From Pirellulales bacterium (GTDB lineage Bacteria > Planctomycetota > Planctomycetia > Pirellulales > JAICIG01), in the NCBI GenBank assembly GCA_035547915.1, contig DASZTS010000014.1:53134-117133 (forward strand): a DNA stretch of 64,000 bases, read 5' to 3'. This document shows, one piece after another, positions 7,501 to 56,528 of the stretch. Position numbers and translations under genes: made by a program. The notes beneath the pieces were generated by a model. That model ran no database searches. It saw nothing but the letters and a program-made list of their open reading frames with translations, and was not told the DNA's origin. The first letter of the stretch is position 1; each line of letters starts with the position of its first letter.

Positions 7501-10500
7501 CTACTTCTCCAGAAACAGCTCGCTCTTCACGACAAAGCGGAGGAGGTCTTGCAGGCGGTACTCGGTGGATTTCAATTCTAGCCCCCGCTCCTTGAGGAAC
7601 TCAAGTTCCGGGTAGCTGAGCGTGCGGCCCGTGGCATAACCGGCCAGATGCTTGAGGAACGAGAACGCGACCTGGTCGAGCCGTTCGTCGGCCAAATAGG
7701 CCTTCAAGCCGTTGGCGTCGTCGACCTGCCTTCCATCGGGCAGGGTCGAACGGGCATCGACCGCCGGATCGGACAGCCCTTTGAATCGGCCGCCGGCATC
7801 GAATTGTTCCAAGGGTAGCCCCCAGGGATCAATGCCGGCATGACACTTCACGCAGCCCGGCTGATTGCGATGTCGCTCGAGTTTTTCGCGGAGTGTGAGC
7901 TTCAGCCCGTCGTCGTTCGGCAACGCCGGCACGTTGGGCGGTGGATCGTCCGGCGGCTCCGCGATGATCTTGCGCGCCAGCCACGCGCCCCGCTTCACGG
8001 GATTCACTTCGCGGCCGTCCGACAGGCCGGCCAAGATTCCGGCCTGGGCCAACAGACCGCCGAGGTTGGCGTTGTCGTGTGAGATGGCGACGAATTCGAA
8101 GCCGGTCTCCGTACGATCGGCCAGATCGTAATAGTTCGCCACGACCTCGTTGGCCACGATGAAGTCGGAACGGACCAGGTTCCGCAGCGGCAGATTGTTC
8201 CGCAACAGGTGCAGAAGGAATTCGACCGGCTCGCCGCGCAACTGAGTTTTGGCGTGGCGGGTGAGTCGCGGATAGCGTCGGCGGTCCGTCTCGACGACGT
8301 CGAGCTTGTCGAGGTTCAACCACTGCGACGCGAATTCACGCGCGAACTGGCCGCAGCGTGGATCTGCCACCATGCGTTCGATCTCCGGATCGAGTGACGC
8401 GAGCAGTTGGCCAGAGGCAGCAAGTTGCAGCAGCCGCTCGTCGGGCGGAGCATTCCAGAGAAAGTACGACAATTTCGCGGCCAGCTCATAACCGTCGAGA
8501 GGCTCACCTTGCGGGCTCTCGCTCTGCTCGATCAAGAACAAGAACTGCGGCGACGTCAGCACCACGAGCAGCGCATCTTTGATGCTCTGCCGGAATTCTC
8601 CGCATCGGCCGAACGAGTCCTGCCAGACCGCCATCAGCGCCTCCTCTTCTTGGGCTGCCAGGGGCCGACGAAACGCGCGCGTGGCGAACGACCGCAACAC
8701 GTCGCGGGCGTACTCGGCCGATTCGGACGGATGGGGCGAGGCGATAAAGATGTTGCGATGCGTGGCCGGGGGCCAAGTGTCGTAGAACGGCCCCTCGAAT
8801 TCCACCGAACGGAGCAGGAGTCGCGGCATATCGCGGCCATCGGTGTATTCGCTGCGGACGCCGATCTCCCGCACGCCTGCCAGGTAGTTGACGTTGTCCT
8901 TTTCCACATCGGGGCTGGGGAAATTCCCGATCGCCCCCTCGAACACATAGTCCTGCGGCTCGCACGAGGTGACGACCCGTGCCGTGCCGACCTGCGTCAA
9001 TGTGCTGCCGCAGTCGCGCCTCAGTCCGAGGTGCACGCCGATCCGCGGCTGACGCTTTGCGAAAGTCGAAAAGCGCGTGGCCGCTTCGTGTGCCGGGTCG
9101 AGTGGCGTAAGCACCAGGCGGGCCGCCGCCGGCTGGCCGCCGTAGATGGCGGACACATTTAGCGGACCGGCAGGCAGATGCAACGCTAGAAAGGCCGGTT
9201 GCGAGAGGGTTCCCGAAAACCGCAGCTCGCCCAGCAGCAGCGTCAGGTTCTGCCGTTTCTCGTTGTTGGGCTGGGGCGGCGTGGCCGCATCGGCCGCCAA
9301 GTAGATGTCGGCCTGATAGATGCCCGCCGTCGGAATCGACACCGATTGCGGCTGGCCCAGGTTCTCGACCGTCAACGCTCCGGCCGATGAAGCATCCTGG
9401 CTCGCGGCGCCGGGGTCGAGGAGCAGGCCGTCGTCGTACTTCGCGGCCTTGACCGTTACGCGAAATCGTCCCTCGTCGGGCAGTTCACGTAGCGAGATTT
9501 TGAAATTGGCCTTCGGGCCGTAGGTGCTGTCGACCTGGAACTCTTCGTCACTGGGGATGGCCGGCCGCAACAGCAGGCCCTGGGGCACCGTCTCGTAGGC
9601 CAGCCCCTTGGGATAACCTTCCGAGCCACGCATGCAGGCAAACACCGCATGGTAGATGCTGTCGTATTCCCGCCAGCCACGCACCGTATCGTTCCCCTGA
9701 TACCCCTCGATGAAGCGATACTGCGTGCGCATGAAGAACGGCCGGTATTCGAACGGCTTCGTGGGACTGAGCTGCGTGACCACGAAGTCGTCGTTCTTGA
9801 GCAGATGGCTGAGCGCCCCCAGAATCAGATTGTCGGGGCATGGCGTCGGGTTGATATGCTCGCCCAGATCCATGCGAAAATTCTGGATGCTGGGCGGCGA
9901 TCGTTCGTCGACGATGCACCGGTCGAGCAACTTCTCCGCGATGCCGAAATACGCGTCGATCAGCAGGGGCGAGAGCAGCATCGACTGGCCGTTGTTCAAG
10001 AAGCCCTCCTTGGAGACGGTGTCGGGGGGCAACACATCGGTCAGATCGTCGTCGAGACCCAGCAGGTCGCGTAGTGTGTTGCGATATTGGGCGACCGTCA
10101 GCCGACGCACCGAACCGTTCTTGTCGGGCTTGCGTGACCGCGCCACGGCGATGGCCTGGTCGATCCAGTCGGTCAGCGATCGCCGTTCGTCGGCCGTCGG
10201 TTGCGGCTCGTCTTCGGGCGGCATCGCCTCGTCGGCCAGTTGGCGGCGGATCTCGGTCCAGAGGAACGGTTGTCTACCCGCGAGCGAGCCGTCGAGATGA
10301 TCGACGCGCACACCCGATTTCATCTCTTCGGGGTTGTGGCAGCGCACGCAGTATTTGGCGAGCAGTGGTTGCACCTGCTCGCGGAAACGCGTTTGAATGG
10401 CCGCCAGCGGAGCGGCAGTCGGCGGCTCTTCCCCTCGCACGGCCGAAACCAACCCCGGCCCGGCCAATAGCATCAGGCTGATGACGCGGAATCGCCACGG

Positions 10501-10566: not shown

Positions 10567-11185
10567 TGCCTCTCTAACGATCCGCCGCTGATCGTGGGAA
10601 ACCCTCTTCTCCCCTTCCCACGGAAAACATCTCGCTTGATCGGATTGTAGTCTGCGGAGAACTTGTGCGGCAGTGCGGGACCGGCAATGCGCCGGGACCC
10701 CGCATCTGCATTATCCGCATTCCCCGCGTCGCGGCTGTCACGGCATCGACAGTCAGCCGACGGCAGCGACCACAATTAGTTTTGCAAAAATCGTGTGAAC
10801 CTTCTGAAACCTTTCACGTCTATCAGGGTATAAGCTGACGGACGCGGACGACGCTGGGGTCGATCTGTGCCGCTTCGCAGGATGGCCTCACCGGGCCAGC
10901 GAGATTTCCGATGATGACCAAAAGGCCAAGCATCACCAACGAACGCATAGGGACGTGCTCGTTTGCCGGCAAACCGGCGAATCGGCTCCCCGCGCATCCG
11001 TTGCGCTTGTGACGCTCGGCCATTTGGCAAGCAAGGCTCATCAAAGGCCCGGTGTCACGCGACGCCGGGCCTTTTTCGTTGGCACACAACAAACATGGGT
11101 CGGTAGCTGAGACGGTATAGCACTTGGCTGAAAACCAGGAGACGAGGATTCGAGCGCCTCCCGACCCACTCACAGAAAGACATAC

Positions 11186-11258
11186 GGCTCGTTCGTCTAG
11201 CGGCCAAGGATGCCGGTTTTTCAAGCCGGAGACCGGGGTTCAACTCCCCGACGGGCTA
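11186..11258 (+). tRNA. tRNA-Glu(TTC)
   Basis: Cloverleaf folded by hand: acceptor GGCTCGT/ACGGGCT, anticodon arm CCGGT-TTTTCAA-GCCGG, T-arm CGGGG-TTCAACT-CCCCG. Confidence 0.75.
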
Positions 11259-11276
11259 CTCGGAAACACAGAACAA

Positions 11277-11348
11277 CGGGATGTAGGGTAACGGCGGCCC
11301 GCGTGCCTTGGGAGCACGAGCGAGTGGGTTCAACTCCCACCATCCCGA
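11277..11348 (+). tRNA. tRNA-Pro(TGG)
   Basis: C1:G72 acceptor (CGGGATG/CATCCCG), anticodon arm CGTGC-CTTGGGA-GCACG, T-arm GTGGG-TTCAACT-CCCAC. Confidence 0.75.
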
Positions 11349-11409
11349 CTTGGCCATCGCTCGGCGAGCGATCGGCAAGGAAGGGTGAGAGAGGTCGTCA
11401 TCGGAACAC

Positions 11410-11481
11410 GGTCCGGTGTTGTAAGGGAAGCATGGCGATCTGATACGTCGCCGGAGGTTGGTTCAACTCCACCCCGGACTA
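11410..11481 (+). tRNA. tRNA-Ile(GAT)-like, degenerate D-arm (possible pseudo-tRNA)
   Basis: Good anticodon arm GCGAT-CTGATAC-GTCGC and acceptor GGTCCGG/CCGGACT. T-arm has one mismatch and no convincing D-stem. Confidence 0.35.
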
Positions 11482-11547
11482 CTTCAACAGGAGACAACGA
11501 ATGCGGCAGCCACAACGATTCAAACGCATACGCCAGACCGGCAACAC

Positions 11548-11619
11548 GGGGTCGTGGCGTAACGGCAGCGCATCCGCCTTTTAAGCGGAAGGGTGAGGGT
11601 TCGATTCCCTCCGGCCCCA
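11548..11619 (+). tRNA. tRNA-Lys(TTT)
   Basis: Acceptor GGGGTCG/CGGCCCC, anticodon arm TCCGC-CTTTTAA-GCGGA, T-arm GAGGG-TTCGATT-CCCTC. Confidence 0.8.
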
Positions 11620-11626
11620 CTGATCT

Positions 11627-11698
11627 CGGCACGTAGCTCAGTGGCAGAGCGGGACTCTTATAAGGCCCTGGTCGAAGGTCCGATTCCTTCCGTGCCGA
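11627..11698 (+). tRNA. tRNA with UAU anticodon (Ile2-like)
   Basis: Perfect acceptor CGGCACG/CGTGCCG, D-stem GCTC/GAGC, anticodon arm GGACT-CTTATAA-GGCCC (one A.C mismatch), T-arm GAAGG-TCCGATT-CCTTC. Confidence 0.55.
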
Positions 11699-11723
11699 CT
11701 GGCAGAGGCGAACGACACAACAC

Positions 11724-11796
11724 GGGATCAAGGTGTTAGCGGCAGCATACCTGGCTCTTAACCAGGCTGGTGACGGTTCGAGCCCGTCTGGTCCCA
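11724..11796 (+). tRNA. tRNA-Lys(CTT)
   Basis: Acceptor GGGATCA/TGGTCCC, anticodon arm CCTGG-CTCTTAA-CCAGG, T-arm GACGG-TTCGAGC-CCGTC. Confidence 0.75.
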
Positions 11797-11810
11797 CTTG
11801 TGACAAGCAC

Positions 11811-11882
11811 GCACTGGTCGTCTAGCGGCGAAGACTCCGCACCCGTAATGCGGCGACGTGGGTTCGACTCCCGCCCGGTGCT
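11811..11882 (+). tRNA. tRNA-Thr(CGT), C33 in anticodon loop
   Basis: All four stems pair well (D GTCT/AGAC, anticodon CCGCA/TGCGG, T GTGGG/CCCGC). The loop reads CCCGTAA, which puts C at position 33. Confidence 0.55.
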
Positions 11883-11958
11883 CTCGATCTTTGACAATTC
11901 GGTGATCGCAAAAAAGCGGCCGACAGACCCGCAAGCCGAAGCGGGCTTTGTCGGCAAT

Positions 11959-12030
11959 GCACCCATGATGTAGCGGATGCCTATCTGCTTGCCATGCAGA
12001 AAGTGCCGGTTCGACTCCGGCTGGGGTGCT
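11959..12030 (+). tRNA. tRNA-Gly(GCC)-like
   Basis: Anticodon arm TCTGC-TTGCCAT-GCAGA, T-arm GCCGG-TTCGACT-CCGGC, discriminator U as expected for Gly. The acceptor has a bulge or mismatch at its base. Confidence 0.45.
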
Positions 12031-12052
12031 TTTGGAGCCGGACGAACAACAA

Positions 12053-12212
12053 TTCCCTCTCCCTTTGGGAGAGGGTTAGGGTGAGGGCGGATCGCCCGCT
12101 CTTGCATCGTTGATTCTCTTCGGACGTGGCTGGCGTTTTCGCTGAGCAAGAGACGACCCTATTGGTACTTTCAGCCGCCCTCACCCCGTCCCTCTCCCGA
12201 AAGGGAGAGGGA
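12053..12212. repeat. ~160-bp palindromic element (CCCTCTCCC...GGGAGAGGG family), copy 1
   Basis: Terminal mini-hairpins CCCTCTCCC-TTTG-GGGAGAGGG and CCCTCTCCC-GAAA-GGGAGAGGG. Long-range inverted repeat GGGTGAGGGCGG / CCGCCCTCACCC. Near-identical copy at 54203-54356. Confidence 0.8.
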
Positions 12213-12247
12213 GTAGTACTGCCGATGTTTTTTTGTTCGTTCCTTAA

Positions 12248-12321
12248 CGGCGTGTAGGAAAGCCTGGGACTCCGCGTGCGTCGGGAGCACGAGATCGCCG
12301 GTTCAAATCCGGCCACGCCGA
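12248..12321 (+). tRNA. tRNA-Pro(CGG)
   Basis: C1:G72 acceptor CGGCGTG/CACGCCG, anticodon arm CGTGC-GTCGGGA-GCACG, T-arm GCCGG-TTCAAAT-CCGGC. A T-rich tract follows. The serine recombinase gene ends 18 bp downstream. Confidence 0.8.
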
Positions 12322-13793
12322 CTTTTTTCAGAGATGAGCCCTTCGGCGAGAACGTCGAAGGGCTTTCTCATTGTGGTGACGAGAGTTACGCCGTCGAGGC
12401 GGCAGTTCAAAAACACGATTTCGAGCAAACGACGCTTTGTCGCGTAGTCGGCGGTAAGCCATTGCTGCCGAAGCGTTTGCGAAAGTTCAAAAACTTTCGA
12501 CGCCAGCTCCGCCGTTTCGTCGTGCGACCGGTCGAGCGCGTCGAGTTGCAGCTTGATCGACGCCATTCGGTCACGCAACTCCGTGTGTTTGCGGGCGAAC
12601 GTCTCCTGGTCGATGTCATCCGACAGTCGCATGTTGAGCAACCGGTCCTGCTGCTGCACGAGCAACGTCTCCTGCCGCTGAAGCTCCGAACGCTGGGCCA
12701 TCGACTCGGTCTGCGCATCCCGCGTCTGTGAAGCAAGTACCAGCCGGAACCAATCGCGGACGCTCTCATCCTCGACCTGCATCTTGTCGAACACGGCCAG
12801 CACCTGCTGGTCGATGTCGGCTTCCGTGACACGCACGCGGGGATGCCCAGCCCTGTTGTAGTACGTGCAGCGGTAATAGATGTAGAAGCGGTCGCCGTTC
12901 TTCGACTTTTTCCTGACCTTCTCGCCGGTAATCGGATGGCCGCAATGGCCGCATTGGATGATGTCGCCGGCGTACGTGATCGCGTGCGACTGGTAAATGT
13001 GATCGCCAAGCAGCACCTGCACGCGGTCCCACGTCGCACGGTCGATCAGCGGCTCGTGTTTGCCGGGATACCACTCGCCCTTGTGGAGGATTTCGCCGAT
13101 GTAGGCCCGATCCTTCAGAACGTTGTGGACCATGCTGCGGGGAAACTTCGGCTGTGCATCCCGAAAGACCCGCCCATCAGCTTCGAGCCGCTCGACCAGG
13201 CCGTCGAGGGTCACGTTCTCGTAGGCATAGAGATGGAAGATGCGTTTGACGTTGGCGGCAGCCGGGGGATCAACCTCGATGATGCCCCGCCCATCCTTGC
13301 GGACGTTGCGATAGCCATACGGAGCCAGTCCGATAAACCAGCCTTCCCGCACGCGACGGGCCAGCCCCTCGCGGACATCCACTGATTGCTGCTCGGTGTA
13401 GAAGCTTGCCATGTTGGCAAGCGTCCGCCGCATCATGCGGCCGGCGGGCGTATTTTCCGTCGGCTGCGACACGGAGATGAACGGCAGGTCGTATTCCGAC
13501 TCCAGCCGTTCCAGCTCAACGTAATCGAAGAGATTGCGGGCAGCCCGGTCCACCTTGTAGAACAGCAAGCCGTCGAGGAACGGGGCGTTCTTCTTGGCGT
13601 ACGCGATCAACTCGCGGAAGGTTTTCCGCTCATCAGTCTTGCTCGCCGTCTCGGCGATCTTGAACAGCTTGGCGATTTCGCCACCGGCCTGCATGGCGTA
13701 TCGCTTGAGGGCTTCTTCCTGTACTTCGAGGCTGAATCCCTCGCGTTCCTGTTCCCGGCTGCTTACCCGTGCCAACGCGACAAACTGTTTCAT
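12303..13793 (-). CDS. Large serine recombinase (site-specific integrase)
   Basis: N-terminal resolvase catalytic domain (ALARVSSREQ...), recombinase domain and Zn-ribbon (CGHCGHP...YYRC), coiled-coil C-terminus. Lies immediately adjacent to the 3' end of tRNA-Pro(CGG). Confidence 0.9.
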   Translation of the reverse strand: MKQFVALARVSSREQEREGFSLEVQEEALKRYAMQAGGEIAKLFKIAETASKTDERKTFRELIAYAKKNAPFLDGLLFYKVDRAARNLFDYVELERLESEYDLPFISVSQPTENTPAGRMMRRTLANMASFYTEQQSVDVREGLARRVREGWFIGLAPYGYRNVRKDGRGIIEVDPPAAANVKRIFHLYAYENVTLDGLVERLEADGRVFRDAQPKFPRSMVHNVLKDRAYIGEILHKGEWYPGKHEPLIDRATWDRVQVLLGDHIYQSHAITYAGDIIQCGHCGHPITGEKVRKKSKNGDRFYIYYRCTYYNRAGHPRVRVTEADIDQQVLAVFDKMQVEDESVRDWFRLVLASQTRDAQTESMAQRSELQRQETLLVQQQDRLLNMRLSDDIDQETFARKHTELRDRMASIKLQLDALDRSHDETAELASKVFELSQTLRQQWLTADYATKRRLLEIVFLNCRLDGVTLVTTMRKPFDVLAEGLISEKSRRGRI

Positions 13794-50690: not shown

Positions 50691-50765
50691 TGCGGTGGGA
50701 CCCGTGTTGGTACGGGTAGGCGGCTGTTAACCGCCCGGACGCAGGTTCGATTCCTGCCACCGCAG
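50691..50765 (+). tRNA. tRNA-Asn(GTT)
   Basis: U1:A72 acceptor TGCGGTG/CACCGCA, G73, anticodon arm GGCGG-CTGTTAA-CCGCC, T-arm GCAGG-TTCGATT-CCTGC. Confidence 0.8.
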
Positions 50766-50805
50766 CTTTTTTAAGCCTAATCTGGTTTTGTCGGTTGCTC
50801 TAAAT

Positions 50806-50877
50806 GTGCCCTTGGCCGAGCGGCAAAGGCTCCAGCCTTCCAAGCTGGCGAGGCGAGTTCGACTCTCGCAGGGCACT
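50806..50877 (+). tRNA. tRNA-Gly(TCC)
   Basis: Acceptor GTGCCCT/AGGGCAC, U73, anticodon arm CCAGC-CTTCCAA-GCTGG, T-arm GCGAG-TTCGACT-CTCGC. Confidence 0.8.
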
Positions 50878-50891
50878 CTGCATCGGATTGA

Positions 50892-50962
50892 TCGGGGATC
50901 GGCTAACGGTAGGCTGCCTGGCTTTGACCCAGGTGATGGAGGTTCAAGTCCTTCTCCCCGAA
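50892..50962 (+). tRNA. tRNA-Gln(TTG)
   Basis: U1:A72 acceptor TCGGGGA/TCCCCGA, anticodon arm CCTGG-CTTTGAC-CCAGG, T-arm GGAGG-TTCAAGT-CCTTC. Short D-arm. Confidence 0.65.
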
Positions 50963-50998
50963 CTTTGCTCGCGATGGTGTGTCTCAAGTAATACCCGA

Positions 50999-51072
50999 TC
51001 CGGGGCAGTCGCTGCTGGTAGCGATGCCTGGCTCTGAACCAGGAGGCGTTGGTTCGATTCCAACCCCCGGAA
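50999..51072 (+). tRNA. tRNA-Gln(CTG)
   Basis: Acceptor TCCGGGG/CCCCGGA, D-stem GTCGC/GCGAT, anticodon arm CCTGG-CTCTGAA-CCAGG, T-arm GTTGG-TTCGATT-CCAAC. Confidence 0.75.
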
Positions 51073-51121
51073 TTTTTATGGTCGAAAGAGATCTGCAACA
51101 AGTCGTGAACAACAGATAGAT

Positions 51122-51209
51122 GCGGAGGTCATCCGGCTGGATGAGGAACTTGTCTCGAAAACAAGTAGCGGCCCTGCCGCTTGTGAGTTCGAGTCTCACG
51201 GCCTCCGCC
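51122..51209 (+). tRNA. tRNA-Ser(CGA) (class II)
   Basis: Acceptor GCGGAGG/CCTCCGC, anticodon arm CTTGT-CTCGAAA-ACAAG, long variable arm GCGGCCCTGCCGC, T-arm GTGAG-TTCGAGT-CTCAC. Confidence 0.75.
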
Positions 51210-51322
51210 TTGAGTAAGAGCGGCTGATAGAAACCAAAAGCCCGAGCGCCATGGCAAAAATTGGCTGTGAAACGCCAATTTTTCGGCAGCTCGATCCAAT
51301 TTTGTCGGCTGCAATAAAACAC

Positions 51323-51395
51323 GGTCCCGTGGCCTAGCAGCGAAGGCAGCACCCTTACAAGGTGACGATCGACAGTGCGAGTCTGTCCGGGACTA
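51323..51395 (+). tRNA. tRNA-Val(TAC)
   Basis: Acceptor GGTCCCG/CGGGACT, anticodon arm GCACC-CTTACAA-GGTGA, T-arm GACAG-TGCGAGT-CTGTC (G55 in place of U). Confidence 0.65.
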
Positions 51396-51410
51396 CTTCA
51401 AACGCGAATC

Positions 51411-51484
51411 GCCTAGGTACGCCAACAGGCAGAGCGGCTTGGCTTAAACCCAAGTGTTTGCGGGTTCAACTCCCGCCCTGGGCA
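51411..51484 (+). tRNA. Class-I (short variable arm) tRNA with UAA anticodon (Leu anticodon, atypical)
   Basis: Acceptor GCCTAGG/CCTGGGC, anticodon arm CTTGG-CTTAAAC-CCAAG, T-arm GCGGG-TTCAACT-CCCGC. 74 nt with only a 5-nt variable loop. Confidence 0.55.
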
Positions 51485-51546
51485 CTCGTGAAGACAGCTT
51501 AGAGCAACCGGCAAGATCGGACGCCGGTCTTGTCAGCCGCTCTTAC

Positions 51547-51619
51547 GGCTCGGTAGGCAACGGCAGACCACCTTGGCTTAGAACCAGGGATGCTGTGGGT
51601 TCGAGTCCCACCTGAGCCA
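51547..51619 (+). tRNA. Class-I tRNA with UAG anticodon (Leu anticodon, atypical)
   Basis: Acceptor GGCTCGG/CTGAGCC, anticodon arm CTTGG-CTTAGAA-CCAGG, T-arm GTGGG-TTCGAGT-CCCAC. 6-nt variable loop. Confidence 0.55.
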
Positions 51620-51624
51620 TTCGC

Positions 51625-51742
51625 ATAAGAACGGCTGACGAAACCTGGAAGCCGGAGCGCGGCGGGCGAAAAATCGGTCGTGAAACGCCGAGTTTTTGAA
51701 ACATCGAGTCGGTTTCGTCAGTTGCTCGAAGAATTTCGTCCT
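51625..51742. repeat. Palindromic ~110-bp spacer element (TAGAGCGGCTGACAAAACCGG ... CCGGTTTTGTCGGTTGCTCTA family)
   Basis: Inverted terminal arms and internal hairpin ATCGGCCGTGAAACGCCGAT. Further copies at 52014-52108, 52352-52473, 52553-52660 and 55491-55600. Partial copies at 51497-51545, 52905-52950, 53290-53350 and 56451-56512. Confidence 0.75.
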
Positions 51743-51747
51743 CGTGG

Positions 51748-51822
51748 AGCAGCCTGGAGTGCTCGCCACCCTGTCAAGGTGGAGGTCGTGGGTTCAAATC
51801 CCATCGGGGACGCCTTTGAAAG
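51748..51822 (+). tRNA. tRNA-Asp(GTC)
   Basis: Acceptor GTCCTCG/CGGGGAC, G73, D-stem GAGC/GCTC, anticodon arm CCACC-CTGTCAA-GGTGG, T-arm GTGGG-TTCAAAT-CCCAT. Confidence 0.8.
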
Positions 51823-51835
51823 CACGGCGCGGTAC

Positions 51836-51913
51836 GCAAACGGGAAAAGCGGCCAAGCTCAAACCTTGGTGATTCTTTGTCGGTTCGACTCCGACCCGCG
51901 CCACTCGAACACG
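51836..51913 (+). tRNA. tRNA with CAA anticodon (Leu anticodon), 9-nt variable loop, atypical
   Basis: Acceptor GGCGCGG/CCGCGCC, anticodon arm CCAAG-CTCAAAC-CTTGG, T-arm GTCGG-TTCGACT-CCGAC. 78 nt, without the long class-II variable arm. Confidence 0.55.
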
Positions 51914-51931
51914 AACAACATGCGTCGGTTG

Positions 51932-52013
51932 GGCATTGGCAAGCTCCAGTGGCCGTAACCCACCCGCCTTCGGGCTCTGCAGGTTCGACTCCTGCCCGGC
52001 GCACTAAGAGCGG
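51932..52013 (+). tRNA. tRNA-Tyr(GTA) (class II), C33
   Basis: Acceptor GCGTCGG/CCGGCGC, A73, anticodon loop CCGTAAC, variable arm CCGCCTTCGGGCT, T-arm GCAGG-TTCGACT-CCTGC. Confidence 0.55.
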
Positions 52014-52117
52014 CTGACAAAATCGGGAAGCCGGAGTGCCGCGGGCGAAAAAATCGGCCGTGAAACGCCGGTTTTTGTGGCTCGATCCGGTTCTGTCGGT
52101 TGCTCTAGATACAACTT

Positions 52118-52188
52118 GGCCCGTTCGTCTATCGGTAGGACACGAGCCCCTCAAGCTCGGAAGGCGGGTTCGATTCCCGTGCGGGTCA
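52118..52188 (+). tRNA. tRNA-Glu(CTC), C33
   Basis: Acceptor GGCCCGT/GCGGGTC, D-arm of Glu type (TCGTCTATCGGTAGGAC), anticodon arm CGAGC-CCCTCAA-GCTCG, T-arm GCGGG-TTCGATT-CCCGT. Confidence 0.6.
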
Positions 52189-52192
52189 CTTC

Positions 52193-52276
52193 GGCCAAGT
52201 GGTGCAATTGGAAGACACACGACGCTCAGAACGTCGGCCCCTCGCGGGCGTGGGAGTTCGAGTCTCCCCTTGGTCA
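52193..52276 (+). tRNA. tRNA-Leu(CAG) (canonical class II)
   Basis: Acceptor GGCCAAG/CTTGGTC, anticodon arm CGACG-CTCAGAA-CGTCG, long variable arm GCCCCTCGCGGGCGT, T-arm GGGAG-TTCGAGT-CTCCC. Confidence 0.8.
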
Positions 52277-52282
52277 TTTCGA

Positions 52283-52351
52283 CGCAGGTGGGCCAGTGTC
52301 CAGCGAAGCCTCATAAGCTTCGCGCGCCGGGTGCGACTCCCGGACCTGCAA
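52283..52351 (+). tRNA. tRNA-Met(CAT), short (69 nt), initiator-like C1.A72 mismatch
   Basis: Anticodon arm (GC)GAAGC-CTCATAA-GCTTC(GC), T-arm CCGGG-TGCGACT-CCCGG, acceptor CGCAGGT/ACCTGCA with unpaired C1.A72 and A73. Reduced D-arm. Confidence 0.5.
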
Positions 52352-52476
52352 CTTTGGAGTTGCTCTTAGAGCGGCTGACAAAACCCGGAAGCCGGAGCGC
52401 CCGTGGGCGAAAAATCGGCCGTGAAACGCCGATTTTTGTGGAGCGAAGTCCGGTTTTGTCGGTTGCTCTTAGATGC

Positions 52477-52552
52477 GGCCGGGTACGCAAACCGGAAAAG
52501 CGGCGAGGTCGAGAGCCTCGTGACTCTGTGGGTTCGACCCCCACCTCGGCTA
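52477..52552 (+). tRNA. tRNA with GAG anticodon (Leu anticodon), 7-nt variable loop, C33, atypical
   Basis: Paralog of the CAA tRNA (same TA-CGC-AAACCGGAAAA-GCG D-arm). Anticodon arm CGAGG-TCGAGAG-CCTCG, T-arm GTGGG-TTCGACC-CCCAC. Confidence 0.5.
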
Positions 52553-52660
52553 CTAAGAGCGGTTGACAAAAGCTAGACGCCGGCGCGCCGCGGGCGAGAA
52601 ATCGGCCGCGAAACGCCGATCTTTGTGGAGCGCGATCTGGTTTTGTCGATTGCTCTAAAC

Positions 52661-52732
52661 GATCTCGTGGTCCAACGGCGACGACGCTTGGCTGACGTCC
52701 GGGAAACGATGGTTCAACTCCATCCGGGATCA
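52661..52732 (+). tRNA. tRNA-Val(GAC)
   Basis: Acceptor GATCTCG/CGGGATC, anticodon arm CTTGG-CTGACGT-CCGGG (two G.U pairs), T-arm GATGG-TTCAACT-CCATC. Confidence 0.55.
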
Positions 52733-52737
52733 CTCAT

Positions 52738-52808
52738 GGTCTGTAGGTGTTTCGGCAGCACACCGCCGTGGTAAGGCGGAAGACCCGGTTCAATTCCGGG
52801 ACGGACCT
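52738..52808 (+). tRNA. tRNA-Thr(GGT)
   Basis: Acceptor GGTCTGT/ACGGACC, anticodon arm CCGCC-GTGGTAA-GGCGG, T-arm CCCGG-TTCAATT-CCGGG. Confidence 0.75.
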
Positions 52809-52829
52809 CTGACACGACAAACACAACAC

Positions 52830-52901
52830 GGGCCTGCATGTCCCCGGAGGCGACTGACCCTTGCAAGGTCGGTGTGATGGGTTCGACCCCCATCAGGTCC
52901 A
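52830..52901 (+). tRNA. tRNA-Ala(TGC)
   Basis: G3.U70 identity pair, acceptor GGGCCTG/CAGGTCC, anticodon arm TGACC-CTTGCAA-GGTCG, T-arm ATGGG-TTCGACC-CCCAT. Confidence 0.8.
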
Positions 52902-52955
52902 CTTGTTAGAGGAACCGACAGAACCGGATCGAGCTTTCCTCGGATCGACTGATAT

Positions 52956-53026
52956 GGGCTGCTGGTCCAACGGGACGACGCCGGCTCCGCAGGCCGGAAA
53001 TCGGAGTTCGACTCTCCGGCGGTCCA
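52956..53026 (+). tRNA. tRNA-Ala(CGC), C33
   Basis: G3.U70 present. Anticodon arm CCGGC-TCCGCAG-GCCGG, T-arm CGGAG-TTCGACT-CTCCG. Confidence 0.6.
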
Positions 53027-53036
53027 CTGACAACGA

Positions 53037-53107
53037 GGGCTCATCGTCAAAAGGGAAGACGCCAGTCCGGCAGGCTGGAGATCTGGGTTCGATTCCCAGT
53101 GGGTCCA
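53037..53107 (+). tRNA. tRNA-Ala(GGC), C33
   Basis: G3.U70 present. Anticodon arm CCAGT-CCGGCAG-GCTGG, T-arm CTGGG-TTCGATT-CCCAG. Confidence 0.6.
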
Positions 53108-53124
53108 CTCAACCGAGGAGAAAG

Positions 53125-53211
53125 GGAAGGTAGGCGGATACGGCTTGCCGCGCCGCTTTGCTAAAGCGGTTCCCGGGACACGGGATGAGGGTTCGACTCC
53201 CTTGCCTTCCG
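53125..53211 (+). tRNA. tRNA-Ser(GCT) (class II)
   Basis: Acceptor GGAAGGT/GCCTTCC, G73, anticodon arm CCGCT-TTGCTAA-AGCGG, variable arm TCCCG-GGACA-CGGGA, T-arm GAGGG-TTCGACT-CCCTT. Confidence 0.75.
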
Positions 53212-53217
53212 CTCGTT

Positions 53218-53289
53218 GCCCCGATGGTGAAACGGACATCATCCCCTGCTTCTAACTGGGTGTTCCGGGTTCGAGTCCTGGTCGGGGTA
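53218..53289 (+). tRNA. tRNA-Arg(TCT)
   Basis: Acceptor GCCCCGA/TCGGGGT, anticodon arm CCCTG-CTTCTAA-CTGGG (one U.U mismatch), T-arm CCGGG-TTCGAGT-CCTGG. Confidence 0.5.
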
Positions 53290-53366
53290 CTGATAAGAGC
53301 AACCGAAAAGACCGGATTGCGCTCTCGGCTTCCGGTTCTTGCCGGCCACTGTAAGGAGGACCGTTT

Positions 53367-54170
53367 ATGACAACCGACATCGAGAGGCAATTCGCCAAGA
53401 TGGGTGCGCGGATCAAGCTGCACGAGCGCGAGCAGATCGGCAGCATGGCCGGCGTCTCGATCGACATCGGTCGCGACCGGTTGGGCGAGTTTTATGACGT
53501 CTCTGTGGACAACCGCGACGACAAGAACTTGTCGGTGCTCGACGTGCGACCCCGCATCCGGCACTTGCTGTTGTCGTACCATCGGCCGGCGGTGAACACC
53601 AACAGCCGGTTCCTGTGCGGTCACGACGAGCGGCATTGGTTCGTCGCGGCGATCCCCGAAACATCGGCGTCGTCGTCGGTGCGGACCGCCATGGAGTCGC
53701 TCAAGCCGATGGCCGTTCGCCGCCTGCAGGAGAGACTTCGCGTCAAGCCACAGAAGCGGAACCGCCGGCGCAACGCAGCGTTCGTCCGACAGGGCGAGTG
53801 GTTCTTCATCCGTATTGCTCCATCCGTCCGCATCGACGAGTGGATGGTTCTGCGGAACGAGCCATTGCGGCGTGGCAACGGCAAGCCGCATTTCGTCGAG
53901 GAGCTGATTCGCGTCGGCGGAGAAGCGGTCTATGTCAGCAACCAATACCCGCAGGGTCTCACGTTCCGCGAGTATCAGAAGCTGATCGGCCGCAAGCCGG
54001 AGCTACGGCACTTGCAATGGGTTGTGCAGCGGCGCAACCCGCAGGTTTTTGTACGGGGTAGGGTTCGCCATGCCGATCACAAGACGATTTTCTTGGACGG
54101 CTGGCACCAGGTACTGATGAACACCGAGACGCAGTCGCTCGCGATGCGTCATGTGGCGTTCATCGACTGA
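53367..54170 (+). CDS. Hypothetical protein (inside tRNA array)
   Basis: RBS AAGGAGG then ATG. 267-aa basic protein with no recognised motif. Confidence 0.5.
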   Translation: MTTDIERQFAKMGARIKLHEREQIGSMAGVSIDIGRDRLGEFYDVSVDNRDDKNLSVLDVRPRIRHLLLSYHRPAVNTNSRFLCGHDERHWFVAAIPETSASSSVRTAMESLKPMAVRRLQERLRVKPQKRNRRRNAAFVRQGEWFFIRIAPSVRIDEWMVLRNEPLRRGNGKPHFVEELIRVGGEAVYVSNQYPQGLTFREYQKLIGRKPELRHLQWVVQRRNPQVFVRGRVRHADHKTIFLDGWHQVLMNTETQSLAMRHVAFID

Positions 54171-54202
54171 GAGTCGGACGATAAAGAGAGCCGGACGATA
54201 AA

Positions 54203-54356
54203 TTCCCTCTCCCTCCGGGAGAGGGTTAGGGTGAGGGCCGATCGCGCGCTCCTGTGTTGTCGACTCTCTTCGGACGTGGCTGAGTTTTCGCTGAACAGGG
54301 GACCGACCCCATTAGTACTCTCAGCCGCCCTCACCCAACCCTCTCCCCGAGGAGAG
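54203..54356. repeat. ~160-bp palindromic element (CCCTCTCCC...GGGAGAGGG family), copy 2
   Basis: Near-identical to 12053-12212. Partial copies at 55112-55170 and 55320-55345. Confidence 0.8.
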
Positions 54357-54414
54357 GACGGAAGACTGCGGAAGTTATTCGATCGCGGGTTGGCGGAACC
54401 GTCGACCCGCATAC

Positions 54415-54490
54415 GGTGTCTGTGGTGTAGCGGTATTCTGCACGCCCGGCTGTGAACCGGATGGTATGGGTTCGACTCCCGTCAGACACC
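54415..54490 (+). tRNA. tRNA-His(GTG) with encoded G-1
   Basis: G-1 pairs with C73. Acceptor GTGTCTG/CAGACAC, anticodon arm CCCGG-CTGTGAA-CCGGA, T-arm ATGGG-TTCGACT-CCCGT. Followed by a CTTTTTTTG tract. Confidence 0.8.
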
Positions 54491-54517
54491 CTTTTTTTGA
54501 CAAGGAGGAATTTGGTC

Positions 54518-55111
54518 GTGGTTGCAAAGATGTTGAACAGACCGGCGCTGGTGCTCAACCGTAACTGGCAGCCGGTGAACGTCGCTACCGTCGCTCGCGC
54601 GCTGGTCATGCTCTTCAACGAGGCGGCCCGCGTCGTCGACCCGCACGACTACCAGCTCTACACCTGGACTGACTGGTCGCGGCTGGCTCCGCGCGACGGC
54701 GAGCCGTTCATCCGGGCGGTGAGCCTGCGGCTGCGCGTGCCGGAGGTGATCGTGCTGGCGGGTTACGATCGGCTGCCCGAGGCGGCCGTCTCGTTCAGCC
54801 GGCGCAACATCTTCAAGCGTGACCACTACACGTGCCAGTATTGCGGCGTGCAACCCGGCCTCGCGGAGTTGTCGATCGACCACGTCGTCCCGCGGTCGCA
54901 GGGCGGCACCTCGACCTGGGACAACTGCGTGCTGGCATGCGTGGACTGCAACAAGACGAAGGCCGACCGCACGCCCGCCGAGGCCGGCATGAAACTGCGC
55001 AAGCAGCCTTGCCGGCCACAATGGAAGCCACTCTACGCCGCGCACAACGTGCGCATCGAGAGCTGGTCGAAGTTCATCAGCGAAGCCTACTGGAGTGTCG
55101 AACTCCGCTAG
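54518..55111 (+). CDS. HNH endonuclease
   Basis: C-terminal HNH motif (DHVVPRSQGGTSTWDNCVLACVDCNKTKADRTP) and Cys-rich CQYCG. RBS AAGGAGG, then a GTG at 54518 or an ATG at 54530. Confidence 0.75.
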   Translation: MVAKMLNRPALVLNRNWQPVNVATVARALVMLFNEAARVVDPHDYQLYTWTDWSRLAPRDGEPFIRAVSLRLRVPEVIVLAGYDRLPEAAVSFSRRNIFKRDHYTCQYCGVQPGLAELSIDHVVPRSQGGTSTWDNCVLACVDCNKTKADRTPAEAGMKLRKQPCRPQWKPLYAAHNVRIESWSKFISEAYWSVELR

Positions 55112-55245
55112 ATCCCCTCTCCCTCTGGGAGAGGGTTAGGGTGAGGGCGGCTTGCATTACAAGCCGCGTCCAACCTGCCTCTCGCTGACAATAGTTTCTT
55201 CGTTCGTTTCCCGATCCAAGCTGGGGCAGCTTGGATCGGCCTTAT

Positions 55246-55315
55246 AGGATCGTGCTCCTGGGAGAGCACGCGGTCTCCAAAGCCGCTTCACGGGGTTCGA
55301 CTCCTCGCGATCCTG
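55246..55315 (+). tRNA. tRNA-Trp(CCA)
   Basis: A1:U72 acceptor AGGATCG/CGATCCT, G73, D-stem GCTC/GAGC, anticodon arm GCGGT-CTCCAAA-GCCGC, T-arm CGGGG-TTCGACT-CCTCG. Confidence 0.8.
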
Positions 55316-55414
55316 CTCGATCCCCTCTCCCTCCGGGAGAGGGCAAACAGGTCGATACCCGTGCCCAGTGACAACTACATAACACGCGAGTCATCGGCCT
55401 TACATGAACAACCT

Positions 55415-55486
55415 GTCCTGATGGTGTAACGGAACGCATTCGACCCTCCGAAGGTCGTGGTCCTGGTTCGAGTCCAGGTCGGGACA
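55415..55486 (+). tRNA. tRNA-Arg(CCG)
   Basis: Acceptor GTCCTGA/TCGGGAC, anticodon arm CGACC-CTCCGAA-GGTCG, T-arm CCTGG-TTCGAGT-CCAGG. T-tract follows. Confidence 0.8.
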
Positions 55487-55613
55487 TTTTTTAGATTACA
55501 GAGCAACCGACAAAACCGGATGCAGCTCCGACAAATCGGCGTTTCACGGCCGATTTTTCGCCCACCGCGCTCCTGCTTCCGAGTCTTGTCAGCCGCTCTG
55601 GCGATCCAACCTT

Positions 55614-55684
55614 GCCCTGCGAGTGTGATGGAAGCACGGCAGTCTTCGGAACTGCAAGACGGGGTCCGATTCCTCGGCGGGGTA
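55614..55684 (+). tRNA. tRNA-Arg(TCG)
   Basis: Acceptor GCCCTGC/GCGGGGT, anticodon arm GCAGT-CTTCGGA-ACTGC, T-arm CGGGG-TCCGATT-CCTCG. Confidence 0.7.
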
Positions 55685-55703
55685 CTGCTGCTCGAAAAAA
55701 CTT

Positions 55704-55777
55704 GTCCTCGGAGTGTGCCGGATTTCGCACGCGAGCCCGCGAAGCTCGTAGACCAGGTTCGATTCCTGGCGAGGACG
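55704..55777 (+). tRNA. tRNA-Arg(GCG), C33
   Basis: Perfect acceptor GTCCTCG/CGAGGAC, anticodon arm CGAGC-CCGCGAA-GCTCG, T-arm CCAGG-TTCGATT-CCTGG. Confidence 0.55.
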
Positions 55778-55788
55778 CTTGAACGATT

Positions 55789-55860
55789 GACGCTGGAGCC
55801 AGACGGCACGGCAACCGCCTGCAAAGCGGTTCGAAGCGGGTTCGACTCCCGCCGGCGTCT
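55789..55860 (+). tRNA. tRNA-Cys(GCA)
   Basis: Acceptor GACGCTG/CGGCGTC, U73, anticodon arm ACCGC-CTGCAAA-GCGGT, T-arm GCGGG-TTCGACT-CCCGC. Confidence 0.8.
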
Positions 55861-55868
55861 CTTGAAGA

Positions 55869-56033
55869 CAGGCATTGGGATGCCGACCAGGCCAGCGGCA
55901 CACCGACCCCGCGTAATGCGGTCGGCCGAGTGTGTTCCGTGCATGGGTTCTGACAACGGTCGGCATCACGTGGTAGCTCAAAGGTGAAAAACCCGAGAGT
56001 TGCGGGTTCGACTCCCGTCGAATGCACCACAGT
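55869..56033 (+). ncRNA. tRNA-like element: canonical T-arm + acceptor 3' strand with encoded CCA, but ~80 nt too long for a tRNA
   Basis: 3' end GCGGG-TTCGACT-CCCGT-CGAATGC-A-CCA (55995-56033). A possible 5' acceptor partner GCATTGG sits at 55870-55876. No canonical anticodon arm could be folded in between. Confidence 0.3.
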
Positions 56034-56528
56034 CGGCTCATAACCGACCGGGTGGAAAACACCCTCGCGAAAGCCCGAGGGAGGCGGACGTTTCGGCCGG
56101 TCAGCCCTAAACCGTACGGCGGGCGTTCGACGTGATGCGCTTCGGCACCGGACCGAAAGGTCGGTGTCCGGGGCCGTCGCCAGAACGGCGTTGACGGTTT
56201 TCGGCAGCATCACCAACTGCCATGTAGTGCGTGGATACCGCTTCTCGCGGGCGGTCGGCTACGGCGGCGAAGGCAGGCGAGCCGTGAAGGGCGTTGCCCG
56301 ACATGACAAGCCGATCCTTGCCGGCCAACGCCAGCAGTCCGTGGTTGCTCAAGCAGCACTCCGCGGACGGTGGTGTGACCGACGTTGCGTTCCGCCGCCC
56401 GACGGCGTTTTTTATTGCATACAATCCGGCCGCATGAGCGCGCCGGCGATCGTTAGAGCAAACGACAAGACCGGATCGAGCTCCGACTTCGCAGTCTTGT
56501 CCGCCGCTCTCAGGAAGGAAGGTGCAGC

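Follow-up and report, generated by a model that had tools for sequence, protein, structure and literature searches.

The 64,000-nucleotide stretch of DNA analyzed here (positions 53,134 to 117,133 of contig DASZTS010000014.1, GenBank assembly GCA_035547915.1; hereafter 'the window') comes from an uncultured Pirellulales bacterium, and its large open reading frames (ORFs) carry planctomycete-specific PSD/PSCyt domains. ARAGORN predicts 38 tRNA genes in this window, all on the + strand and all with distinct anticodons, with 10 located at 11,097-12,322 and 28 at 50,691-55,861. The Rfam gathering score is passed by 29 of the 38, and the other 9 ARAGORN calls fall below this threshold. In and beside the downstream cluster lies a family of short repeats with inverted ends. 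These elements are very probably decayed copies of a ~98-bp non-autonomous, non-coding DNA transposon, or MITE (short for miniature inverted-repeat transposable element), that inserted at TTA or TAA trinucleotides. Although the kind of element is already known, this MITE family from uncultured Pirellulales is previously undescribed.

50691-55861, + strand: downstream part of the L-type array; 28 co-oriented tRNA genes, with a 267-aa ORF and an HNH endonuclease gene embedded

A family of short repeats in and beside the tRNA gene array

An 18-mer representing one arm of the element, searched with up to three mismatches allowed, yields nine matches in the window versus 0.04 expected by chance, all of them within 51,216-56,511. 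Likewise, the matches of an nhmmer profile built from the full copies are confined to 50,762-56,513, and there are none across the remaining ~58 kb of the window. The resulting inventory comprises six full copies (F1 through F6), four short copies (S1 through S4) and one lone 3′ arm, all within 50,762-56,513.

50762-50803 (arm 50784-50800), + strand: lone 3′ arm, GGTTTTGTCGGTTGCTC then TAA, plus some interior; between tRNA-Asn and tRNA-Gly(tcc); nhmmer E = 1.4e-4
51215-51317 (body 51218-51314), + strand: F1, full but decayed copy; between tRNA-Ser(cga) and tRNA-Val(tac); flanks TAA/TAA; nhmmer E = 7.6e-27; RNA fold -38 kcal/mol
51499-51545 (body 51502-51542), - strand: S1, 41-bp mini-copy made of the two arms only; between tRNA-Leu(taa) and tRNA-Leu(tag); flanks TTA/TTA
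51626-51730 (body 51629-51727), + strand: F2, full copy; between tRNA-Leu(tag) and tRNA-Asp; flanks TAA/GAA
52005-52108 (body 52008-52105), + strand: F3, full copy; directly 3′ of tRNA-Tyr; flanks TAA/TAG
52356-52365, + strand: outer end of an older 3′ arm, GGAGTTGCTC, read from the sequence; adjoins the TTA targeted by F4
52366-52471 (body 52369-52468), + strand: F4, full copy, nearest to the consensus among the window copies; between tRNA-Met and tRNA-Leu(gag); flanks TTA/TTA; nhmmer E = 2.3e-33
52554-52658 (body 52557-52655), + strand: F5, full copy; directly 3′ of tRNA-Leu(gag); flanks TAA/TAA
52906-52947 (body ~52909-52947), - strand: S2, truncated copy with one arm and the neighboring interior; between tRNA-Ala(tgc) and tRNA-Ala(cgc); nhmmer E = 2e-4
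53294-53354 (body 53297-53351), - strand: S3, internally deleted 55-bp copy without the central hairpin; directly 5′ of the ribosome-binding site of the conserved 267-aa ORF; flanks TAA/TAA
55501-55598, - strand: F6, full copy, inverted; between tRNA-Arg(ccg) and tRNA-Arg(tcg); flanks ACA/TGG
56453-56512 (body 56456-56509), - strand: S4, internally deleted 54-bp copy; directly 5′ of the SPFH/Band_7 gene; flanks TTA/TCA

This inventory largely agrees with the original prediction, made from the sequence alone, of a repeat family between tRNA genes with at least five full and four partial copies, including a partial copy upstream of the SPFH gene (S4). The family is present far above chance, six full copies are counted instead of five, the four partial copies stand, and the lone arm is an additional one located outside the coordinates considered at that time. 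However, the description of these repeats as perfect palindromes does not hold, given that the arms match at only 13 to 15 of 20 positions in most copies. The assertion that the locus is not a CRISPR array was correct, as evident by repeats of ~100 bp that are 66-88% identical, occur in both orientations and are irregularly spaced with tRNA genes between them.

Structure and divergence of the element

The body of a full copy spans 97-100 bp and that of a short form 41-55 bp, which is non-coding and leaves no room for a transposase. Only the ends of ~17-20 bp and a 10-bp central hairpin are self-complementary, while the ~45 nt of the interior are not. Compared as DNA inverted repeats, the arms match at 13-15 of 20 positions in F2 through F6, S1 and S4; for F1 and S3, which are decayed, the number of matches is 10-11 of 20. 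The arms are consistently unequal, with GAGCGGCTGAC on one side and GAGCAACCGAC on the other, such that the terminal inverted repeats are imperfect (GAGCGGCTGACAAAACC at one end, and GAGCAACCGACAAAACC on the opposite strand at the other end). The conserved central hairpin reads AAAAATCGGC-CGTGAAAC-GCCGATTTTT, in which CGTGAAAC forms the loop, and is followed on its 3′ side by a run of five T nucleotides.

Folding of the full copies as RNA confirms that the predicted hairpins are real, with minimum free energies of -38 to -57 kcal/mol and z-scores of -2.6 to -5.9. The fold of F4 reaches -55 kcal/mol on the tRNA strand versus -45.5 kcal/mol on the opposite strand, because three fixed differences between the arms can pair as G-U on one strand only.

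Five of the full copies (F1 through F5) are oriented one way and F6 is inverted. Among the short forms, S1, S3 and S4 are internal deletions and S2 is a truncation whose arm, in an inverted-repeat search, is 96% complementary to the 3′ arm of F3. The deletion breakpoints of S3 and S4 differ, and these copies thus represent independent internal deletions. Each window copy is nearer to a consensus-like copy found in another genome (L035, described below) than to most of its neighbors. This star-like divergence, as judged from the alignments, is more in keeping with amplification from master copies than with a series of local duplications. The position of F4 next to the older arm end at 52,356-52,365 indicates a nested or repeated insertion.

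Target-site duplications and empty sites

With the ends of the element set as GAG...CTC, flanking sequences could be tabulated for the ten two-ended copies (F1 through F6, S1, S3, S4 and the L035 copy). Seven have both ends intact, and F1, F2 and S3 each carry one mutated end. In six of the ten, the 3 nt on either side form a perfect direct repeat, reading TAA/TAA for F1, F5, S3 and L035 and TTA/TTA for F4 and S1, and in three more (F2, F3 and S4) the two flanks are one base apart. TTA is the reverse complement of TAA, so if the flanks simply continued the palindrome, TTA would stand on one side and TAA on the other, but such inverted flank pairs are never seen (0 of 10).

Orthologous arrays provide the view of these sites before insertion. 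Four loci from relatives (L067 through L070) were fetched as homologues of the 267-aa ORF, which has thousands of planctomycete homologues. Three of them, L068 (part of a 5.66-Mb contig), L069 and L070, agree with the window in the order of their 30-37 tRNA genes and in having the 267-aa ORF, and the downstream SPFH gene is common to the window, L068 and L069. The closest relative is L067, whose 267-aa ORF is 82% identical and whose version of the array has decayed. Neither nhmmer at full sensitivity nor an arm search with three mismatches allowed detected a copy of the element in any of the four loci, and the spacers of these arrays are mostly short.

Several of the sites occupied in the window can be read directly in their unoccupied form. 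At the S3 site, the window has CTGA-TAA-[55 bp]-TAA-GGAGGA and L067 has CTGA-TAA-GGAGGA with a single TAA. The sites of S4 and F6 are likewise unoccupied in L067, with alignments that run across them, although F6 is accompanied by ~14 additional flanking nucleotides relative to L067. Once the element and one TWA (where W is A or T) are taken out, the F5 site gives a gap-free alignment to L068 and can also be aligned to L069, and the F3 site can be aligned to both L068 and L069. For all eight of the site and genome pairs compared, the score of the excised site exceeds that of the filled site. Therefore, the array is older than the elements, and the TWA trinucleotide was duplicated on insertion. 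The original prediction raised the possibility of a role for the repeats in pre-tRNA processing or termination. A conserved signal of this type is not what the element represents, because four orthologous arrays exist without any copy of it.

Copies outside the tRNA array

Two copies were found in other Pirellulales DNA, away from tRNA genes, in addition to the 11 window copies that all reside within 5.8 kb. A scan of a genome collection with a degenerate arm pattern returned mostly chance matches; the true copy among the matches listed is located at 519-628 of L035, from another Pirellulales assembly. This near-consensus copy is 90% identical to F3 and F4, is flanked by TAA/TAA, and occupies the stop codon of a glutamine amidotransferase-like gene; tRNA genes are absent within 8 kb of it. 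The corresponding site in a related genome (L071, 85% protein identity) has no element. A metagenome scan with the central hairpin gave, among the matches listed, seven chance matches and one true copy, a degenerate one at 449-552 of a soil metagenome contig (L063). It also sits on a stop codon, with no tRNA gene nearby, and its orientation relative to the upstream gene is opposite to that of the L035 copy. In both instances, the TTA target followed by the first G of the element creates TAG, so that the upstream reading frame still terminates.

Candidate matches in L017, L019 and L042 were rejected as coding-sequence coincidences. Searches of viral contigs with three patterns gave nothing, or chance matches in unrelated phage coding sequence, and BLASTN with F4 against plasmid and phage records gave no match. 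An Rfam search at E <= 1 also found no family that matches the element.

Assignment to the MITEs and a probable transposase partner

The elements have the features by which MITEs are recognized: they are small and non-coding, they have terminal inverted repeats, they are flanked by target-site duplications, and their sites are empty in relatives. The nature of the ends and the length of the duplication further suggest that an IS5-family DDE transposase of the IS1031/IS427 type probably mobilized them in trans. The traits of this type that are seen in the element are the GAG ends and the 3-bp TWA duplication. 'GAG' ends and a 3-bp duplication characterize the IS1031 group in ISfinder. The IS5-family member IS1237 has inverted repeats that start GAGGTGG... 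and duplicates TTA or TAA, and targets of 3 nt are described as typical for the IS1031 group (PMC2516522).

Some observations do not sit easily with the conclusion that the repeats are transposon copies of this type. A transposase gene with matching ends was not found, and there is none within the window. The only DDE_Tnp_1 gene met in this study, that of L069, was rejected as a partner, as the insertion sequence that carries it is unrelated, having TGCCTTGTTGAAAAC ends and duplicating 9 bp. One of the ten two-ended copies, F6, has unrelated flanks and no target duplication. Moreover, the central hairpin and its loop are more conserved (0.95-0.97) than the terminal repeats (0.86-0.91), and 5 of 29 stem pairs have changed on both sides with pairing kept, versus 1.4 expected from shuffling (4 of 500 shuffles reach the observed count). 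The double changes and the conservation of the hairpin are a hint of some structural constraint.

The distribution of the copies is also problematic, in that all those of the window fall within 5.8 kb and are more clustered than the non-coding TWA sites predict. Approximately 36% of the usable non-coding TWA sites are in this region, and the probability that ten of ten insertions would occur there is ~3e-5 under a crude model. Therefore, target availability is not the whole explanation of the clustering. The 'regular placement between tRNAs' emphasized in the original prediction is nevertheless mostly due to the fact that nearly all non-genic DNA of the 5.8 kb is inter-tRNA, with only some of the clustering left over.

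Alternative explanations

One way to accommodate these observations would be to propose that the MITE preferentially homes to, or is retained in, the spacers of tRNA arrays, where its hairpin and G-U-compatible stem would work at the RNA level as modules for processing or attenuation and redistribute expression within an accessory array. Such a role for the spacers would account for the clustering, for the double-changed stem pairs and for the opposite orientation of the copies that lack the hairpin. We regard it as improbable, if still the best placed of the alternatives.

Slightly less probable is the more general notion that the copies, whatever their origin, are domesticated spacers kept by selection because their hairpins act in the polycistronic tRNA transcript, where they would either give entry to RNase III or RNase E or divide the array as weak terminators or attenuators. 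The observations that speak for this are structural. All three arm differences in F1 through F5 are G-U on the tRNA strand, where the stem is continuous; 93% of stem cells pair; the central hairpin and loop form the most conserved segment and are followed by the T run; and five of the six full copies have the continuous-stem orientation while all four of the hairpin-less short copies have the opposite one (Fisher two-sided ~0.05). However, the four orthologous arrays manage without copies, and the L035 and L063 copies, which are remote from tRNA genes, occupy stop codons and are opposite to each other in their orientation to the upstream gene. The private G-U changes (12) are not significantly above the A-C changes (8), which provides no strand-specific signature, and the asymmetry of the arms is equally expected if a parent insertion sequence with unequal ends passed it on. 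Of the six central hairpins, only that of F2 passes a simple terminator scan, there are no promoter-like sites, no Rfam family corresponds to the element, and the copies are decaying, as evident by their identities of 66-88% and their deletions.

A repetitive extragenic palindromic (REP) sequence or REPIN, or an IS200/IS605-type element, would be a hairpin repeat moved as single-stranded DNA by a Y1 transposase such as RAYT. The ~100-nt imperfect hairpin with its consistent, strand-specific G-T asymmetry of the stem, and the intergenic, clustered locations, would be in keeping with such an origin. This explanation seems quite unlikely because direct 3-bp duplications and single-copy empty sites are hallmarks of DDE-type integration, and REP and IS200/IS605 elements do not duplicate their target. 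Furthermore, the element is not a doublet of short REP units but has a unique interior and a separate central hairpin, and no Y1 transposase gene is present within the window.

Finally, expansion of the array by recombination, or by tandem or segmental duplication of a tRNA gene plus its spacer, can be set aside almost entirely even though the copies cluster in one array and most full copies are co-oriented: the order of the tRNA genes is identical in relatives without the element and is older than the element, and therefore the array was not built from such duplications; the flanking tRNA genes are all different (38 distinct anticodons); and the copies have their own target duplications, occur at unrelated loci of other genomes and share no flanking homology beyond the element.

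A proposed course of events

The copies inserted into TTA or TAA trinucleotides, duplicating the target in the process, and did so only in the lineage of the window, in a tRNA array that was already assembled. Point mutation, internal deletion giving the short forms, and truncation then caused the copies to decay. The ancestral spacers are 4-15 nt long and AT-rich, and they often contain TTA or TAA or near matches to them. It seems likely that copies gathered in the array because, in an otherwise GC-rich and gene-dense genome, its short and AT-rich spacers present many TWA targets where insertion does no harm, and because an accessory array tolerates change. Local re-insertion and relaxed selection would be the likeliest additions to target availability.

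In the transcript of the array, copies are expected to form long hairpins within the pre-tRNA that are most likely trimmed, as a by-product of the structure of the transposon. A co-transcribed hairpin of this type is plausibly cut by RNase III, and such cleavage would be a consequence of the structure of the element rather than evidence of a role.

The host array and neighboring features

The tRNA genes of the array have several unusual characteristics. Their anticodons include Ile(UAU), Arg(UCG) and Arg(GCG), and of the five tRNA-Leu genes, four measure only 73-79 nt and thus lack the long variable arm expected of a bacterial tRNA-Leu. The orthologue of Leu(tag) in L068 carries an additional hairpin of ~45 nt, and an insertion is present in a Ser-like gene as well. 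The tRNA-Ser(cga) gene found in L068 and L070 at the position of the lone 3′ arm is missing there in the window. A canonical 85-nt tRNA-Leu(caa) gene occurs outside of the array in L068, and L067 has lost most of its array, which suggests that the genes of the array are supernumerary or accessory.

Two further features of the downstream region were noted.

54518-55111, + strand: HNH endonuclease gene between tRNA-His and tRNA-Trp; also present in L067 and L070
55862-56415 (L067 13725-14275; L068 11379-11905; L069 11836-12360): conserved non-coding stretch of ~520-550 nt between tRNA-Cys and the SPFH gene, ending in a strong intrinsic terminator

In NCBIfam, the HNH gene best matches IscB and Cas9d in their HNH regions, with scores far below the cut-offs, such that only the HNH domain is common to them. 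The terminator of the non-coding stretch lies at 56393-56407 and is followed by a run of T. This stretch also holds a tRNA-like fragment truncated at its 5′ end, which has a T-arm and, in the case of the window and L067, also a CCA end. RNAalifold analysis of the four sequences predicts 104 pairs, including long-range ones, of which 25 have compensatory changes, and there is no Rfam match at E <= 1. This modeled structure makes the stretch a candidate for a new, large structured RNA that accompanies the tRNA array of planctomycetes.

The separation of the tRNA genes of the window into two clusters results from an insert of ~38 kb (12303-50690) that splits one array, as evident by the adjacent tRNA-Pro and tRNA-Asn genes in L068 and L070. 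This insert looks like an integrative mobilizable or conjugative element. Its genes include a serine recombinase abutting tRNA-Pro(cgg), a split type IV coupling protein, ParB, a tyrosine integrase and a TrwC relaxase, along with type I restriction-modification, a 1949-aa SNF2/methylase, a 5-hmdU DNA kinase/MazG protein and an IrrE/HTH pair. No direct repeat greater than 10 bp flanks the insert.

A second, unrelated palindromic family is present at 12055-12215, 54200-54365, 55113-55150 and 55320-55345, in all cases in the tRNA array. It consists of two ~165-bp elements that are 87% identical and have inverted termini CCCTCTCCC-N4-GGGAGAGGGTTAGGGTGAGGGC, plus two solo termini. These occurrences suggest that the tRNA array is a general sink for small mobile repeats.

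Among the relatives, the array is decaying or being invaded in L067 and L069. In L067 (9900-14340), the segment between tRNA-Gln(ttg) and the T-arm of tRNA-Arg(tct) has been lost, and ~1.7 kb of genes are inserted in tRNA-Arg(gcg). In L069 (8440-9440), an insertion sequence with a DDE_Tnp_1 gene and a 9-bp duplication, ATCTCGCTT, lies inside tRNA-Arg(tct). The array of L068 has its own spacer repeat of ~55 nt (7793-7847 and 8527-8587), which ends GCTC(G/A)GTTGCTT and is located 5′ of tRNA-Gly(tcc) and tRNA-Asp, the positions of the lone arm and F2 in the window. It has the 9-mer AGCAACCGA in common with the arm of the element and is not detected by the nhmmer profile; the resemblance could be due to chance, or the repeat could be a distant relative of the element family.

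Significance

For the purpose of annotation, the palindromic 'spacers' of this locus are best treated as transposon insertions and not as part of the biology of the tRNA array. More broadly, accessory tRNA arrays can act as sinks, as two palindromic families and a 38-kb integrative element have landed in this one. The copies in L035 and L063 also illustrate that insertions with a duplicated TTA or TAA are able to sit on stop codons and leave termination intact.

Comparison with known systems

The host locus, as distinct from the repeat, resembles the long, horizontally transferred tRNA 'L-arrays' with an associated homing endonuclease described by Santamaria-Gomez et al. (2021, PMC8421152). 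Points of likeness are its 38 co-oriented and non-periodic genes, the presence of one gene per anticodon, and the embedded HNH gene, the location of which is like that of the homing endonucleases beside other long tRNA arrays in the same account. Term searches of two articles on tRNA arrays revealed no mention of palindromic elements that colonize the spacers of arrays.

Various classes of small repeats offer themselves for comparison with the element itself. The core sites of integrons have the forms RYYYAAC and GTTRRRY. Integron attC-like sites were rejected because the ends of the element do not fit these cores and because the units between copies are tRNA genes and not cassettes. The original prediction had likened the repeats to a MITE or a bacterial interspersed mosaic element (BIME). 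The first half of this comparison is upheld by the inverted repeats, the 3-bp duplication, the empty sites and the copies elsewhere. REP, BIME and REPIN sequences are similar to the element in being intergenic, hairpin-forming and clustered. However, REP units of 20-40 nt, mobilization by RAYT without target duplication, and the mosaics of alternating REPs that make up BIMEs are features absent from the element.

A closer structural parallel is provided by the Correia elements (CREE/NEMIS) of Neisseria, which are also ~100-150 bp long with terminal inverted repeats and occur in both full and internally deleted size classes. These MITEs are co-transcribed with neighboring genes and form RNA hairpins in transcripts that are cut by RNase III (PMC10969869), and a hairpin that is a plausible RNase III substrate is likewise expected from our element. 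Correia elements differ in that their target duplication is TA, their 26-bp repeats are unrelated in sequence, and they contain promoters as well as a site for integration host factor (IHF) binding, whereas no promoter-like site was detected in the element.

The best match is to MITEs of the IS1031/IS427 type, such as those of the IS1237 type. Like the element described here, these are small, non-coding and present in several copies, with GAG ends, unequal and imperfect repeats, and a duplicated 3-bp T(A/T)A target. What sets the element apart from each of those compared is the sequence of its terminal repeats and its host, an uncultured member of the Pirellulales.

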